Source: a virus
Taxonomy: Duplodnaviria; Heunggongvirae; Uroviricota; Caudoviricetes
IMG/VR virus record: IMGVR_UViG_2703718845_000006
Reading direction: 5' to 3' (one strand)
DNA: 45,755 bases
In this document: piece by piece, positions 2,257-40,714 of the stretch
Layout of the letters: the number at the start of each line of letters is the position of its first letter
Position numbering within the stretch: position 1 is the first letter of the stretch
The notes under the pieces: generated by a model
Database searches by the model: none
Seen by the model: the letters and a program-made list of their open reading frames with translations, nothing else
Told to the model about the DNA's origin: nothing
Position numbers and translations under genes: made by a program

Positions 2257-5200
2257 TCAATGTTCGCTTCCTGTTAACTGCCGGACAAGTGCAACCAGTT
2301 CGCTTACCTGATTTTCCAGAGTGCTGATCCGGGTGCCTGCTGTTGCCAGATTTTGACGTAGCGTTGTGTTTTCCTCTTCCAGCGCGGTAACGCGATCATC
2401 TGTTTCACGGGCGACCTGAACAAGTAAACCCGTCACGGCGGCGTAGTCAACATTAAGATAGCGCGTTTCTTCGCGTAGCTTGTTGCCGTCAACGGTCGGA
2501 CCTTGCAACTCTTCACCATAATGAGTAAACGATCCCACAGCTTCTGGTATCGCCTCCATTACTTCCTGTGCAATAACGCCAGCATAAGGCAGGCCGTTTT
2601 CCTTGAGCGTGTAGGTGTAACCGTTCATTTTGCGGATTGCTTTCGTCGCGTCGCTGATAACGCGAATATCGTCTTTAAGGTCGCGGTCTGATGACTGATT
2701 CAGCGTTGTGCAATTAATAGCGCCATTTACATCAAACAACTGGCCTGCTGGTGTTCTTTGCGCATAAAACAGATACGCAGCAGACGTTGCAACCTCAAAA
2801 ACGTTTTGTCGATCACTTGACCCCCAGACCGCGATGCTAACTGGCAGTTCTGAATTACCTGAATTAAGTAAAGCAAAACGATTGCCAGTCCCTGTTTGTT
2901 TTCTAATTACTAAATCGGCAGTTGAGTTAACCTCATCTTTGTTGATGGTTAGCGCCTGCGCTGTAGCACCGTTAACAGTGCCACTTAGTAGTTGAACCGC
3001 TCCATCATCGCCATTTAACAGCACTTGAGCGCTGCTTCTGTGGTTTTTCAGGAACAACTTTTTGCCTGTGCTTTCTGATGTGCCTACCGACCACGCCGAA
3101 TTGGTTCCAGTGCTATCAACACCACGAACGGTACAATTCATGCTGCCATAATCTGACGTACTTCCAAGCACATCAATCCGCCCGCCACCTAATTTTGATG
3201 GAGTCGTCGAGGTTAACGACCTGACGGTTACATCCTGATTCCATCCGGAAACAACAACCTGACTCCACGCTGTCCAGTTTCCATTAACAACAAAGCGAAC
3301 GTATATACGTTTTGTGTCGCTGTTAATCAGCGTTTGCATGTTCGCATAATCTGAATCCCTAACCTTACGAGTCGATTCAACACGGAGCAAAAAGTTACCT
3401 GTTACGCCGTCAGGCTTGTTGGTGATATTTGCACCACCTGCAGAGGATGGACAAATATAGTATTTAACTGCCCCGGCATCTGACTTGATGATGGTCAGGT
3501 TGTTAAGATTAACCGTCTGGCCGTCAATGTTTTCCGGCTCGATGGCTCCTGCTATCCCGGCACTGAACGTAGCAACGGCTGAAAACGCTGTCGTACCTTT
3601 GAAAGCCAGTTGACCACCAATCGTTAATCCCTTGTCGAGTTTCGCTTGCGTGATCAATTTGCTGTTTTGTTTCTGATCAGGACTCTCACCAAAAGCCAGA
3701 TCCCCATTAGTATCAATTCCAAGATACTTTGGGTTCATGTTGTCTAACTTAAACCCAATGGACACATTTTCAGAAGAACCAGAACGCGTTAAAACCAACG
3801 GCGTGTGCTGTACTCCATAGATGCTGAGCGTAGTTGCCGATGAGTCAGTGTCGGTATTTGCAATCTCAATCGTTCTGCTTTTAATTTTATACGCTACTGT
3901 GAGATCACGGACTTCAACCCTCCCGTCGTGACGAACAACAAGATCCCCTCCTGATGTCCCCCCTGCTGTCTTTGCCCTGATGCGAACTTCGCCAAGCGAA
4001 TCAGTGTTAGGACCAGCATAGATTATGCCGCGCTCTGTGTTATCGCCAGTATAAAACCGCAAAGCGGTGACTCCACTGTCTGCCCGCAGGAAGACTGACG
4101 GTGTACCTTTTTTGATTGTCAAGTCACCGGTCATTGTATCGCCGGTTTTTTTTACCTGCGCATCGTTCGTTACGTTGCCAAGTCCAACATCCGATTTCGA
4201 CGGCTTGTTTGCCGAGCCGTATAGCTCATTGACGCTAAAAGTCCCGTTGTTAAGCCGGGCATCGTTGCCGGCATAGATCTTAATCTTCGCGGTTGAGTAG
4301 TCGATATTGATCGCTGACCACGTATCGCCGCACCGCGAGAATATACCAGAACCGTGGCTATAAATGGTCGCCGTGCTTCCGGTCGGCTTATCACCGCGCC
4401 AGAAATGACCACCTTTGTCACGCAGAGCTTTTAAGATCTCTACATCGCTCATCTTGCCGTTTGTTGATATCCCGCTACCGCCAAGACCGAAAGCGCCTGT
4501 AAGCATAGCATTAGAAAGACCCAAATCTGCTTTAGTCGGCTTGTTTACCTGGTCGTAAATCCTTACAACGTTGCCTTCAATATATCCAGAAGGCGCGGCG
4601 GTTTGCTTAACAAATCCGTCTGGAATGTATAATTCCGTGCGTGCCGTCTGCGCCAGTACCGCAACCTTTGCGCCGTTGATAAATGCGCACTGGAAGGCCC
4701 AAACCTCAATAAAGCCATCACCTTTAACCAGGCCGTAACGCATCTGGTTGTTATCGGTCAGCCCGGTTGACCCTAAGCGGCGTATACTCAGATGACGAGA
4801 AACATTATCCGCACTAAGCAAAGAAGGCAGACCGCGCGCCGAGATCTCGATAAAGTCAATGTTTCCGTAAGGGGAGCCGTAGTTACCAGCGTTAGTAACC
4901 ATTAGCGTTACATGGCAATTGTTGCTTCCGGGATCGGAAAGTTTCGCGATCTTTATGTAAAAAGACTCATTACCAGTAACAACGGGCCAATCGTATTGCG
5001 TCATCGGGCTGACGAGTCCCCCGACCTTGTCGAGATATTCTTTCGCCTTGTTCTCTGACGCTTTAGCGTTGGTTTCGCTGACCTTTGCTGCTGCCTCACT
5101 ATTTTTCGCGTTGGTTTCTGATTTTTTGGCTGCTGTCGCGGAGTTTGCCGATGCAGTTTGTGAGTCTGCTGCCGCCTGTGCGCTGTTATCCGCATTCGTC

Positions 5201-36689: not shown

Positions 36690-36910
36690 GCTGCACCTCC
36701 GAGATGCTTCATGTTTTTTCCGGAGCGAAAGGTTATAAGCGGCATACTGACGCGGTAATTACGGCCCAGCGGTTCACAAATCACCTTCTGACATTCACGG
36801 TCCACCAGGCTAACACGTAGAACATGCCCTGCAGGTGTGGTGTACCACTGACCCGGACGAGGACAACGGAAAGTCTGATTGGTAAACCGTTTGAAAATAT
36901 TCCGGATCAT
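36686..36910 (-). CDS. Hypothetical small protein
   Basis: 74-aa ORF between the Rha-domain ORF and the replication gene; no recognised motif. Confidence 0.35.
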   Translation of the reverse strand: MIRNIFKRFTNQTFRCPRPGQWYTTPAGHVLRVSLVDRECQKVICEPLGRNYRVSMPLITFRSGKNMKHLGGAA

Positions 36911-38058
36911 TTGCGCCCCCTTACCTCTGAAGGGTTCAGCGACAAATTTATGAGGCAGGCCAGTGCCGAAGCATCATTAATATAGTCATACAAGCTAACA
37001 GCCAGCGGAGATTCGGCTTTTGCCAACATAGGATAAAGCTGCTGCAGCCAGACCTGATGAATTGATGAAATGTAGGAACAGAGAACGCTGGCGTTATGTG
37101 CAACGTCGCTCGGTACAGCGGGCTTTGAAAGCTGTTTCTCCATCTGGTTAAAGGCATTGATGTATGCCTCTTTGAACTGGGCAGCACGTTTACCCGTGAA
37201 ACCCATAGCAAGAAACGCAAAGCCGTCGCGGGTTATTTGATAGCAAGGTAGTTTGCGGCCTGTGCAATCGGTGTAATCACTCACCGAAAAATTGCGGGCA
37301 GTGAATGATGCGGAACATTCAAGCGTGCGGATCTTTTTCAGTACATCGTCATGACGTTTGGAGAAGAAGTTGGCAACAGCCAGGGATGAAGTAACAGCCT
37401 GACCATCAACGATGGCAATTTCAGGTTGAGTGAGGGTTGGGATCGTAGCCATGATGGCAGCCTCTTTGGTGATTTTTAATAACTCACCACCAAGGCTTTC
37501 CACGACCTTATTGGTGGTGAGACGTACAGGGGTGGAAATACCGGTCACCAAAGAACCCGGCCCAACCGAAGTTGGCCCTGCACGCCCCACCATAATTTGG
37601 GCGTAATGCTGCTCATGACACAAAAAAACCGCAAGAGCGCGGTTGTGCGCTTTGGTGAATTCCGGGTTTCCACGCCCGGCACCCGCTTTATAAGGTGCCT
37701 GAACAGTGTAACGTCCCGGAATGGCAGAATCAATGTGCTGGTGGTCCTTCACACTCAACAAAATCACGCCTGAATTTCCACAAAGGACTAAAGCATTCAT
37801 GCGGGTAGTCTTTGCGAAGATAGATAACGCGCTGTGTTTCTGGCTCCCAACGAATAACATGAACATAAAGTCCTCTTCCGTCACGAAACCAGCGGTTAAG
37901 TTCCTGCACAACTCGCCCCCCACAGTCAGGTAAAGTTCTCTGTGGTTACTTACAGCCAGGTGATTTGGTAATCTGCATTCATGCCGTAACAACAGGTGTG
38001 CAGCGACACTGACCACCAGCTGTTGCGACAAACGGTTATTTGCCGTTAAACTGTTCAT
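36907..38058 (-). CDS. Rha-family phage regulatory protein; the N-terminal ~200 codons of the ORF are unassigned and the true start is uncertain (possibly MATIPTLTQ near 37446)
   Basis: The C-terminal half has a Phage_pRha-like block (QAVTSSLAVANFFSKRHDDVLKKIRTL...GRKLPCYQITRDGFAFLAMGFTGKRAAQFKEAYINAFNQME). Confidence 0.6.
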   Translation of the reverse strand: MNSLTANNRLSQQLVVSVAAHLLLRHECRLPNHLAVSNHRELYLTVGGELCRNLTAGFVTEEDFMFMLFVGSQKHSALSIFAKTTRMNALVLCGNSGVILLSVKDHQHIDSAIPGRYTVQAPYKAGAGRGNPEFTKAHNRALAVFLCHEQHYAQIMVGRAGPTSVGPGSLVTGISTPVRLTTNKVVESLGGELLKITKEAAIMATIPTLTQPEIAIVDGQAVTSSLAVANFFSKRHDDVLKKIRTLECSASFTARNFSVSDYTDCTGRKLPCYQITRDGFAFLAMGFTGKRAAQFKEAYINAFNQMEKQLSKPAVPSDVAHNASVLCSYISSIHQVWLQQLYPMLAKAESPLAVSLYDYINDASALACLINLSLNPSEVRGRK

Positions 38059-38956: not shown

Positions 38957-39649
38957 ATGAACATAGGAAACCGAGTCAGACAACTTCGCCAGGCGAAGAA
39001 CATGAAAATCGCCGATCTCGCTGAAGCAATAGGAGTGGATGCGGCGAATATCTCACGCCTGGAAACAGGTAAGCAGAAACAATTCACTGAACAAGCCCTG
39101 AGTAATATTGCCAGGAGCTTAGGTGTTGATATTGCTGATCTCTTTACCTCAGACGTCAAAAGTAATACTGTATGTAAAAACAGTATTAGTGAGGATGTTG
39201 CGCAGGTGAAGGATGTATTCCGTATTGAAATGCTGGATGTCAGTGCCAGTGCGGGAAATGGCCTTATCCAGGGCGGTGATGTCATTGATGTGATTCATGC
39301 CATTGAATACAGAACTGATAATGCTGTATCGATGTTTGGCGGACGGCCAGCCAATCACATTAAAGTTATCAACGTTCGTGGGGACAGTATGTGTCCAACC
39401 ATTGAGCCAGGAGATCTCATCTTCGTTGATGTCAGTATCAATCAGTTTGATGGAGATGGTATCTATGTATTTGGTTTTGATGATAAAATTTATGTCAAAC
39501 GACTGCAAATGATACCTGACAAACTACTGGTGATTTCTGATAACCAGATTTACCGTGAATGGGGAATTACCAGCGAAAATGAACACCGGTTTATGGTCTT
39601 TGGAAAGGTCTTAATCAGCCAGTCACAAACCCTTAAGCGACACAATTAA
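38957..39649 (+). CDS. cI: CI-type prophage repressor (HTH + S24 LexA-like autopeptidase domain)
   Basis: N-terminal HTH VRQLRQAKNMKIADLAEAIGVDAANISRLETG; C-terminal S24 domain with GDSM and a downstream Lys (VKRL). Confidence 0.9.
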   Translation: MNIGNRVRQLRQAKNMKIADLAEAIGVDAANISRLETGKQKQFTEQALSNIARSLGVDIADLFTSDVKSNTVCKNSISEDVAQVKDVFRIEMLDVSASAGNGLIQGGDVIDVIHAIEYRTDNAVSMFGGRPANHIKVINVRGDSMCPTIEPGDLIFVDVSINQFDGDGIYVFGFDDKIYVKRLQMIPDKLLVISDNQIYREWGITSENEHRFMVFGKVLISQSQTLKRHN

Positions 39650-39670
39650 CCCTTACCTCCTCATCAATTA

Positions 39671-39694
39671 GCCACCCAAAGGTGGCTTTTCATT
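39671..39694 (+). terminator. Intrinsic terminator downstream of cI
   Basis: GCCACC (39671-39676) CAAA GGTGGC (39681-39686) followed by TTTTCATT. Confidence 0.7.
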
Positions 39695-39704
39695 ACCCTT
39701 TAAA

Positions 39705-39757
39705 TTGCATATCTCGCAACAAAAACACTTGCATAATGCGCAACTTCATTTTATCTT
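39705..39757 (+). promoter_or_regulatory. Left operator region with candidate pL-like promoter
   Basis: Two 15-bp sites TTGCATATCTCGCAA (39705-39719) and TTGCATAATGCGCAA (39729-39743) share half-sites with the cI-cro intergenic region; candidate -35 TTGCAT (39729-39734) and -10 TATCTT (39752-39757). Confidence 0.5.
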
Positions 39758-40215
39758 TCTTTCCAGACAAACAAACAAGGTACTAACAAAATTTGGTTGT
39801 AACACGGCGTATGGCACATGCGTCGTTAGCGGTCTGGGGACGTTAAAGGGGACAATCCACTCCTTGCTCGGGCAAACAAACCAGGTAGCCGGAATGTGCA
39901 AGTCAATGATGATGCTGATAAGACGCCTAACCAGCGTGGCGATTCGGTTTGACGCCTGGGAAGAGACCAGGGTGCAACGATGAGGGCATTTATGGAGCCG
40001 CGACAAAGTGTGGTGCCGTAACTGGCTAAGTGCTCTCAGCGTTGTGGTAATCCGCGAAATGGCGCGGCGGTAAGTATGGCGGGGTTACTCTTTCCCCGTT
40101 GAGGACACCGGATTGTCAGGTTGACCATACGCCTGAGTGACAACCCCACCACAACAGCCACTGCTTTGGCGGTACCAGTTTGTACCCTTGCTTCCGGCTG
40201 GTACCGCTCTTTTTA

Positions 40216-40302
40216 CAAAACAGAGAAGAGCATCACCGGACGACGGGCTCATAACCCAATCCATCCGGGCGGCTGCCACCGCAGGTGTTCTTCTCTGTTT
40301 TG
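40216..40302 (+). other. Long inverted repeat (14-bp arms, ~59-nt spacer) in the early-left leader
   Basis: CAAAACAGAGAAGA (40216-40229) and its exact reverse complement TCTTCTCTGTTTTG (40289-40302); a second inverted repeat GGTACCAG (40171-40178)/CTGGTACC (40198-40205) lies just upstream. Confidence 0.4.
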
Positions 40303-40351
40303 TGGAGAAACTAACCGACCTTACAGGGTCGATATGATGAGGAGCAGCAAA

Positions 40352-40714
40352 ATGGCTAGCGAACGCAGTACTGATGTGCAGGCATTTATCGGGGAGCTGG
40401 ACGGCGGCGTATTTGAAACCAAAATCGGCGCAGTTCTCAGTGAAGTCGCTTCCGGTGTGATGAACACGAAAACCAAAGGTAAGGTCTCACTCAACCTGGA
40501 AATCGAACCATTTGATGAGAACCGTGTGAAAATCAAACACAAACTCTCATATGTTCGCCCGACTAACCGCGGGAAAATTTCCGAAGAAGACACCACCGAA
40601 ACGCCGATGTATGTCAATCGCGGTGGTCGCCTGACTATTCTGCAGGAAGACCAGGGACAATTACTGACTCTTGCCGGTGAACCTGACGGAAAACTCCGCG
40701 CAGCAGGTCATTAA
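40352..40714 (+). CDS. Early-left operon protein, YfdP-like (120 aa)
   Basis: GAGGAG RBS 8 nt before the ATG at 40352; length and position match the first gene of the CPS-53 yfdPQRST cluster (from memory); the upstream ORF-track extension is rejected. Confidence 0.6.
   Translation: MASERSTDVQAFIGELDGGVFETKIGAVLSEVASGVMNTKTKGKVSLNLEIEPFDENRVKIKHKLSYVRPTNRGKISEEDTTETPMYVNRGGRLTILQEDQGQLLTLAGEPDGKLRAAGH

Follow-up and report, generated by a model that had tools for sequence, protein, structure and literature searches.

The leader of the early-left operon in a lambdoid prophage of the SfV/mEp460/cdtI type was found to be a plus-strand chain of five self-contained folded RNA domains, each of which is conserved with compensatory changes. 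The prophage is represented by the IMG/VR record IMGVR_UViG_2703718845_000006, and the whole analysed stretch of 45,755 nucleotides is referred to here as the window; the leader covers positions 39760-40351, and its domains were named M1, M2, M3, DicF-slot hairpin and HP in this study. By analogy with the dicF locus of the Escherichia coli K-12 prophage Qin, the leader is read, with a probability of roughly 0.6, as a terminated, RNase III-processed, polycistronic precursor of non-coding RNAs. An original prediction, made from the DNA letters alone, had described the region as non-coding with two inverted repeats and had listed a nut-like element, a regulatory RNA and a recombination or protein-binding site as possible meanings. 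The regulatory RNA is the option borne out by the present data, in the form of a structured array on the plus strand. The earlier reading had missed M1 and M3, which are distinct conserved RNA domains and together account for two thirds of the region.

Conservation and strand of the RNA domains

The leader differs from its flanks in base composition (G+C 0.545-0.565 versus 0.38-0.44), and the stretch 39760-40351 folds better than shuffles on both strands (z = -4.3 and -4.5), with z = -7.8 for the segment 40156-40356. The covariation folding across relatives that the original prediction had proposed was carried out for M1, M3 and HP, and conserved structures with compensatory changes and conserved G·U pairs were found across dozens of phage variants. 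For M1, viral contigs were scanned with a 19-nt motif, which resulted in 120 loci with 103 distinct cores, and a scan with the inner motif of HP yielded 96 distinct copies. The four-helix structure of M1 is paired to 96.8% over 24 pairs in 42 representatives, as compared to 27-47% when the partners are slid, and compensatory changes are present at 11 of the pairs; in the local 5′ hairpin, for example, an AU pair in 22 sequences is replaced by GC in 20. The five-helix structure of M3 is paired to 95.1% over 33 pairs in 68 distinct copies (32-56% in slid controls) with compensatory changes at 9 pairs; the pseudoknot helix itself, with a single varying pair, receives thin support. For HP, 93.9% pairing over 34 pairs was obtained for 42 sequences (39-50% in slid controls), and 12 pairs show compensatory changes.

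Pairs that are conserved as G·U would be A·C mismatches on the opposite strand. Two pairs of M1 are U·G in 41-42 of the 42 sequences, one pair of HP is U·G in 35 of 42, and two pairs of M3 are G·U in 38 and 44 of 68, respectively. Together with the compensatory changes these pairs indicate selection on the plus-strand RNA, and for M1 the strand is fixed by them. The RNAalifold energy of M1 is -27.9 on the plus strand and -14.5 on the reverse strand. A long-range pairing given by RNAalifold for the 5′ end of M1 (GCACAU/AUGUGC) was discarded, as it could not be told apart from the local hairpin with its 3′ strand being the scan key.

BLAST searches against phage genomes recovered the complete leader in close relatives and separate pieces of it in very different phages (Table 1). 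According to profile searches (nhmmer) of reference phages, M1, M3 and HP are present in the window, M1 and HP in mEp460, M3 and HP in F1055, HP alone in SfII, ST64B, phiNP, Flotzy and e14, and M3 alone in K-12 Qin; the ban operon of P1 carries M1, M3 and HP in a scattered arrangement, the region of HK022 that was searched carries none of them, and M1 was also detected in phiV10. Some part of the leader occurs in 4770 of 5426 complete E. coli genomes. Leader parts are also found in phiV10/epsilon15-like, Stx, cdt and Shigella serotype-converting phages and in at least 12 enterobacterial genera; the M1 motif is present in species representatives of Kosakonia, Citrobacter, Klebsiella, Enterobacter, Erwinia, Kluyvera, Buttiauxella and other genera. 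The breakpoints between phage mosaics lie at module edges, i.e. near 39785, at 40041-40047 and at 40147-40166.

M1, M3 and HP lie outside Rfam, and annotators have labelled them as assorted hypothetical proteins, K-12 ymfH among them. When the window was searched with Rfam 15 at curated thresholds, only C4 and isrK RNAs matched, both outside the leader, and the homologues of M1, M3 and HP in P1, phiV10, Qin, e14, mEp460 and SfII gave no Rfam match. Permissive scans of 39600-40450, 40125-40225 and six small M1 loci returned nothing for M1, M3 or HP; chance-level matches such as microRNA precursors were ignored. The named prophage small RNAs AgvB, AsxR, the Pas small RNAs, svsR and co293 were rejected as candidates, since they are located elsewhere and those with Rfam models gave no match.

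M3 and the DicF slot

A segment of K-12 Qin (L007 3001-3107) that ends 25 nt before DicF shares 93% identity with M3, and the M3 homologue in P1 overlaps the region recorded there as ‘dicF-like region’. The similarity to Qin makes M3 a homologue of the 5′ domain in the 190-nt DicF precursor. Two DicF species have been described in Qin (PMC10448788), one of 190 nt that depends on RNase III and one of 53 nt that depends on RNase E, and the 3′ end of a 72-nt DicF is made by RNase III (PMC5069750). From its length, the 190-nt species equals M3 plus DicF. Its 5′ end in K-12 lies at the base of a 12-bp stem just 5′ of M3, and the 3′ end of the 72-nt species, 19 nt beyond the 53-nt end, falls inside a 21-bp stem that follows the DicF terminator and ends just before dicB. 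The order of terminator, long stem, Shine-Dalgarno sequence and ATG is common to Qin and the window.

A stable hairpin followed by a T-run stands within 37-84 nt behind M3 in 56 of 56 distinct copies, and 29 different hairpins are used at this place. DicF, as defined by the Rfam threshold, fills the slot in 4 of 15 loci and other hairpins fill it in the remainder. The slot hairpin of the window has a G+C-rich stem (dG -20.3 kcal/mol) with the U-tract directly behind it, the features of an intrinsic terminator, and is predicted to terminate transcription and to form the 3′ hairpin of a small RNA. It contains the shorter of the two inverted repeats, GGTACCAG/CTGGTACC, which was located at 40171-40205 as described and extends to 10 bp (GCGGTACCAG at 40169-40178 with CTGGTACCGC at 40198-40207). 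Since 10 bp are also reached in 13 of 300 dinucleotide-preserving shuffles of the leader, this repeat is marginal on its own; it is best read as forming the stem of the intrinsic-terminator-type hairpin that occupies the DicF slot. The hairpin aligns with DicF over UUUGGCGGUAYCAGUUU and the U-tract, and the segments by which DicF, an inhibitor of cell division, pairs with the ftsZ, xylR and pykA mRNAs (PMC5069750) are not conserved in it. As it fails the DicF model, it was filed as a DicF-slot allele and not as DicF. DicF is thereby recast as one allele of a larger unit, which consists of a conserved pseudoknotted 5′ domain and a variable terminator hairpin.

HP and its initiator-tRNA-like tip

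The longer inverted repeat was found at 40216-40302, where it had been reported as 14 bp with a 59-nt spacer. Its arms CAAAACAGAGAAGA (40216-40229) and TCTTCTCTGTTTTG (40289-40302) are fully complementary, one added A-T pair lengthens the perfect repeat to 15 bp, and the RNA helix including G·U pairs comprises 20 bp (40215-40234 with 40284-40303); the repeat search extends it to 25 nt at 84%. In the shuffles of 39760-40351 the longest perfect inverted repeat had a mean of 7.6 bp and a maximum of 11 bp, and 0 of 300 reached 14 bp, a count that is not to be taken as a probability because many of the sequences are related. The 20 pairs of this stem, P1, are consecutive in the window, and family members usually have one internal mismatch. 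P1 and the M2-type stems provide about two turns of mostly uninterrupted double-stranded RNA, as is characteristic of RNase III stems, and they are candidate cleavage sites. The long repeat is best read as one of two RNase III-type cassette stems, i.e. a candidate processing stem with cargo.

The HP stem directly abuts the U-tract of the slot hairpin and lies about 50 nt before the first start codon. This arrangement recurs in the family, as a T-run hairpin adjoins the 5′ arm of HP in 82 of the 96 copies, with 41 distinct hairpins. In Qin, a long stem of different sequence is located at the position of HP. Two surveys of RNase III targets make no mention of ymfH or xisE.

The most conserved part of HP is GACGGGCUCAUAACCCAAUCC with the core GGGCUCAUAACCC, which matches the anticodon stem-loop of E. 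coli tRNA-fMet in 13 of 13 positions; the sequence of this tRNA was verified in 5426 of 5426 genomes. The core forms three G:C pairs and the loop CUCAUAA, in which U33, the CAU anticodon and A37 are present. Three G:C pairs and CAU serve as the identity elements by which the initiator anticodon arm is defined. Within the window the 13-mer occurs only once; 0.05 matches are expected even if one mismatch is allowed. Among HP copies that were fetched without use of the tip motif, the tip was readable in 29 of 32 distinct sequences; all 29 keep GGG-N7-CCC, and all but that of e14 have CAU at the anticodon position. The tip of the HP-like copy in P1 reads GGGUUCAUAUCCC. ARAGORN found no tRNA in the window, and the Rfam tRNA model had no match in the window or in the permissive scan of 39600-40450. 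An origin of the 13-mer from an attP-type site was rejected, as HP occurs in phages with different integration sites (e14 at icd) and in the plasmid prophage P1, and as the identity does not reach toward the 3′ half of the tRNA. No paper describing an initiator anticodon-arm mimic of this kind was found.

M1 and the cassette stem M2

The conservation of M1 and its 3′ stem M2 has sharp edges at 39804 and 40047. The arms of M2 are of the same kind as those of HP (CAAC..AGAGCAUY ... RGUGCUCU..GUUG) and enclose a different cargo. Of 98 distinct M1 variants, 49 have M2-type arms around a variable cargo behind M1, and the outer helix had a median length of 16 bp when 30 distinct stems were folded. 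K-12 Qin has a similar stem at the position of M2, where RNase III creates the 5′ end of the 190-nt DicF. A tRNA-Arg gene adjoins the 3′ end of M1-M2 in 24 of 111 loci, including phiV10-like phages, and in 14 of 111 loci an upstream tRNA ends about 14 nt before M1; in P1, M1 is located directly after trnI and before ban. At one locus on a viral contig (L060 384-430), a complete core of the type I hammerhead ribozyme (CUGAAGA ... GAAAC) stands after M1 in the place of M2, with 28.7 bits against a threshold of 34 (E = 0.0012). With only 1 of 150 M1 copies showing it, this hammerhead-like core is no general feature. Both the core and the tRNAs located there in some phages fit a punctuation role for the module edges.

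Some further observations concern M1. A full-text literature search for stretches of the M1 sequence gave nothing relevant. The exact M1 19-mer is also present on two contigs from metagenome bins labelled Oscillospiraceae and Bacillota (L327 and L339), which is likely due to binning contamination. The 7-nt loop of helix P4 (39923-39937) is CUAACCA here and UUCACCA in most relatives, with a covarying stem; it always ends in ACCA like the 3′ end of a tRNA, which may be a coincidence. The 9 nt GGCGTATGG in the 5′ hairpin of M1 (39806-39814) are fully complementary to CCATACGCC in a pseudoknot strand of M3 (40125-40133), and this match could reflect an M1-M3 contact or an alternative fold.

Proposed processing and alternative explanations

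On the analogy with Qin, the following pathway is proposed. After loss of the repressor, RNA polymerase would initiate near 39764, and part of the transcripts would end at the U-tract 40210-40214 (at about 40212) as an RNA of about 450 nt, with the others reading through. RNase III would then cut M2, which would yield two RNAs, one with M1 (about 230 nt) and one with M3 plus the hairpin (about 170 nt), the latter being the presumed counterpart of the 190-nt DicF. HP would form in the read-through transcripts, and its cleavage by RNase III would separate the non-coding part from the mRNA reaching from yfdP to xis and would release a Y-shaped, roughly tRNA-sized RNA that shows the initiator-tRNA anticodon arm.

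Several points weigh against this interpretation. All processing steps are transferred to this phage from Qin, where the RNA ends are mapped, and the Qin stems resemble M2 and HP by position and shape, not by sequence. Cleavage by RNase III is not predictable from sequence. The Rfam model of DicF (RF00039), which scores 76.7 bits on K-12 with a threshold of 48 bits, found no match in 39600-40450 or 40125-40225 even at E <= 10, and the window hairpin has neither the 5′ single-stranded arm of DicF nor its ftsZ-pairing sequence. A simple terminator scan did not report the hairpin, the 19-nt loop of which exceeds the limit of that scan. Regarding the conservation data, the scan keys (M1 19-mer, HP 21-mer and M3 16-mer) are invariant by construction, and the tested structures have an advantage over the slid controls, since their derivation relied in part on the window sequence. 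Moreover, HP has a near-invariant tip and M1 is large, both of which imply functions other than punctuation that the model leaves unexplained.

Other explanations were weighed against the precursor model. Antitermination of the nut or put type, in which the leader RNA (M1 or HP) would modify RNA polymerase without an N protein, seems unlikely, even though the element is located directly behind the presumed left promoter (pL), the conserved leader terminator must be passed for expression of the early-left genes and xis, and put of HK022 is a precedent (PMC9378689). The absence of an N-like gene, already noted in the original prediction and upheld for the downstream genes from the YfdP-like gene to xis, is also in its favour. 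However, the best local alignments with HK022 putL and putR stayed within the shuffle range (p = 0.09 and 0.42), and the nut-like element that had been suggested was given up, as the boxA-like string CGCTCTTTTTACAA is merely the 3′ half of the terminator stem plus the U-tract and varies among relatives, and no boxB/N pair exists. M1 is missing from many phages that keep the terminator and HP, such as SfII, ST64B and e14, and in the P1 ban operon it stands behind a tRNA and remote from promoters; HP, being downstream of the leader terminator, is unable to influence this terminator. In Qin, no known antiterminator is required for transcripts to pass the DicF terminator (PMC10448788).

For HP, a cis-acting translational operator of the first gene comparable to the thrS operator was considered, the arm of which would bind a factor that recognises tRNA-fMet (methionyl-tRNA synthetase (MetRS), or the 30S P site with initiation factor 3 (IF3)) or would pair near the AUG or the Shine-Dalgarno sequence. 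An exact and conserved initiator anticodon arm about 95 nt upstream of the start codon would suit such an operator, and its loop CUCAU is able to pair with AUGAG at 40337-40341, which overlaps the Shine-Dalgarno sequence; translation of lambda N is regulated by an RNase III site before its start codon. Yet AUGAG or GAG is expected near start codons anyway, no covariation between the loop and the downstream sequence was observed, and HP stands before different first genes (before xis in e14) and, in the HP-like copy of P1, not beside a start codon, so that this explanation is rather improbable. A DNA-level feature, with the stem arms as recombination linkers or as protein-binding or cruciform sites, is hardly probable: the mosaic breakpoints at module edges and the use of the same arms around many different cargos would fit it, but pairing is kept by compensatory changes and the G·U conservation is strand-specific, both of which argue for selection on RNA, and recombination at the arms may be a by-product and not their function. 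A cis-acting translational operator and DNA-level linkers are possible as secondary roles.

The most improbable explanation is that the leader consists of small protein genes. Open reading frames (ORFs) of 64-92 amino acids do occur on both strands, GenBank records list hypothetical proteins in the leader, YmfH of e14 overlaps the HP homologue, and a TTG-started frame at 40121-40714 is open into the first gene as its in-frame extension. None of the leader ORFs has a Pfam match, though, the best-kept frame across M1 is open in at most 34% of 100 variants, and the annotated ORFs are on different strands and at different positions in different phages; in addition, loop and cargo insertions differ in length and RNA covariation is found throughout. 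The earlier statement that no convincing ORF is present thus held, and a non-coding leader is supported. In K-12 e14, the 3′ half of ymfH (L008 2363-2674) is the terminator hairpin plus HP (2549-2637), and ymfH may not be a protein gene.

A bolder combination of two ideas goes beyond the precursor model and is doubtful at present: the HP RNA excised by RNase III would be a trans-acting decoy or competitor, directed at a factor by which the initiator arm is recognised, and early operons would carry exchangeable RNA cassettes. The most attractive target of the decoy would be an enteric VapC-type anticodon nuclease that disables tRNA-fMet, with MetRS and the 30S P site with IF3 as alternatives. 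The cassettes would include M1, M3 with its variable hairpin, HP and others, set apart by RNase III stems, tRNAs or ribozymes. If true, temperate enterobacterial phages would possess an unrecognised accessory non-coding genome.

Comparison with known systems

The closest counterpart of the leader is the dicF region of Qin. Both belong to early-left-type operons downstream of a cI-like repressor, and both have an M3 domain, then a hairpin with a U-tract, then a long stem before a start codon; in Qin the RNase III ends map to the stems at the M2 and HP positions. In contrast to Qin, the window hairpin has a different loop, the sequence and cargo of HP differ, M1 is present, and the protein genes ydfABC that lie upstream in Qin are lacking. 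The P1 ban operon leader shares M3 (L004 220-327), an HP-like element (1495-1572) and M1 (2514-2688) with the window; in P1 these are spread over 2.5 kb among tRNA and tci genes, whereas in the window they are packed into 550 nt behind the promoter.

In the lambda N leader, the T7 early region and metY-nusA-infB, a long imperfect duplex is located between an upstream RNA element and the next cistron, and the order tRNA, terminator, RNase III site and mRNA at metY resembles that in the window. Unlike these RNase III sites, the stems of the window form conserved cassettes in which the cargo can be exchanged, and one such cargo is a copy of a tRNA anticodon arm. Like HK022 put (PMC9378689), the leader is a cis RNA directly behind pL of an N-less lambdoid phage and upstream of terminators; put, however, which makes RNA polymerase resistant to termination by way of the beta′ zinc-binding domain, comprises about 70 nt with two stems, as compared to about 550 nt with five domains in the window, several of which occur away from promoters.

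As in the thrS operator and in phage tRNAs, the hairpin at the HP tip copies identity elements of a specific tRNA anticodon arm, with the difference that its model is the initiator tRNA, that it falls short of a full tRNA and that it is part of an RNase III-type stem. The initiator anticodon arm is precisely where enteric VapC cleaves tRNA-fMet (PMC3378870), and phage tRNAs have been proposed to counter anticodon nucleases (PMC10264068). With a copy of this arm conserved in HP, a connection to toxins directed at tRNA-fMet or to the initiation of translation becomes directly testable, and since the modules are present in K-12 (e14 and Qin) and in P1, experiments are easy to set up. More generally, the leader suggests that non-coding RNA cargo is carried in punctuated arrays by the early operons of phages.

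Flanking features and additional observations

The features of the locus are listed in Table 1. As the original prediction had stated, the leader follows an operator and promoter region: a repressor gene, a terminator and operator- and promoter-like sequences were found upstream. The direct repeats may represent left operator (OL) sites, as their position suggests, and from the candidate pL a transcription start near 39764 is predicted; a consensus promoter scan did not list this promoter at 39729-39757. Similarity to phages of other immunity types begins only at 39785, which fits a promoter/operator upstream that would be specific for the immunity type. The early-left genes from 40352 on encode YfdP-like, YfdQ and dNMP phosphatase proteins, two products without assigned function, and Xis.

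Table 1. Positions of features in and around the leader and of leader pieces recovered in other phages
Feature	Position	Strand	Basis or remark
cI-like repressor gene	38957-39649	+	
Terminator hairpin behind cI-like gene	39670-39687	+	
Operator-like direct repeats TTGCATATCTCGCAAC and TTGCATAATGCGCAAC	39705-39744		repeat search and position
Candidate pL (-35 TTGCAT, 17-nt spacer, -10 TATCTT)	39729-39757	+	read from the sequence
M1 core, multi-helix RNA	39804-39974	+	conservation, covariation, nhmmer
M1 helix P1a	39805-13/39817-25		
M1 helix P2	39829-36/39882-89		
M1 helix P4	39923-26/39934-37		
M1 helix P6	39955-59/39967-71		
M2 cassette stem, CAACGAUGAGGGCAUU ... AAGUGCUCUCAGCGUUG around variable cargo	39975-40047	+	fold; candidate RNase III site
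M3, closed domain with pseudoknot	40041-40155	+	homology to Qin, covariation
M3 helix P1	40041-48/40148-55		
M3 helix P2	40052-56/40063-67		
M3 helix P4	40080-84/40094-98		
M3 helix P3	40074-79/40125-30		pseudoknot, crosses P5
M3 helix P5	40110-18/40138-46		pseudoknot, crossed by P3
DicF-slot hairpin, 11-bp stem, 19-nt loop, then UCUUUUU	40168-40214	+	second repeat of the original prediction
HP, three-way junction, 20-bp stem P1 and arms P2 and P3	40215-40303	+	14-bp repeat of the original prediction; candidate RNase III site
GGGCUCAUAACCC, tip of HP arm P2	40245-40257	+	match to E. coli tRNA-fMet anticodon stem-loop
Small hairpin CGACC-UUACAG-GGUCG, conserved GGAGAAACUAAC just before	40316-40331	+	
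Shine-Dalgarno GAGGAG and ATG of first early-left gene	40339-40354	+	YfdP-like, phrog_204
Leader piece	39791-39968		in P1, P7, D6
Leader piece	39804-40047		in phiV10, TL-2011b
Leader piece	40041-40163		in other lambdoid prophages and an Actinobacillus phage
Leader piece	40166-40351		in SfV, SfII, e14
Leader piece	40209-40315		in ST64B, Flotzy

The stem of the small hairpin between HP and the first gene differs among relatives and yet remains complementary (GCCCC/GGGGC and GGCGG/CCGCC), and GCAG or ACAG is retained in its loop. The linker GCCACUGCUUUG (40157-40168), which precedes the DicF-slot hairpin, is paired with the start-codon region CAGCAAAAUGGC (40345-40356) in the minimum-energy fold, a predicted pairing that could link processing with translation. 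A further shared piece, GGTGAATGCGG(C)T.AGCGCACGCGG, is located in the Qin stem behind DicF (L007 3207-3235) and behind the HP-like element of P1 (L004 1575-1600), and a related form stands in for M3 in mEp460 (L001, about 3410-3440); it looks like another module of the same system.

The small RNA svsR of the SfV-like prophage NC-SV limits phage infection and is encoded at the 3′ end of cI (PMC12803456). Prophage type and cI neighbourhood are common to svsR and the leader, but svsR lies upstream of the leader and is not one of its modules; the corresponding part of the window is at about 39570-39690 and contains the 3′ end of the cI-like gene and the terminator. The C4 antisense RNA (83.6 bits) and isrK RNA (67 bits) matches are at 37510-37698 on the minus strand, inside an ORF of 383 amino acids (36907-38058) that is annotated as Rha/antirepressor in relatives. 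Given the arrangement of c4 and ant in the manner of P1 immI, the annotated start of this ORF is probably too far upstream.

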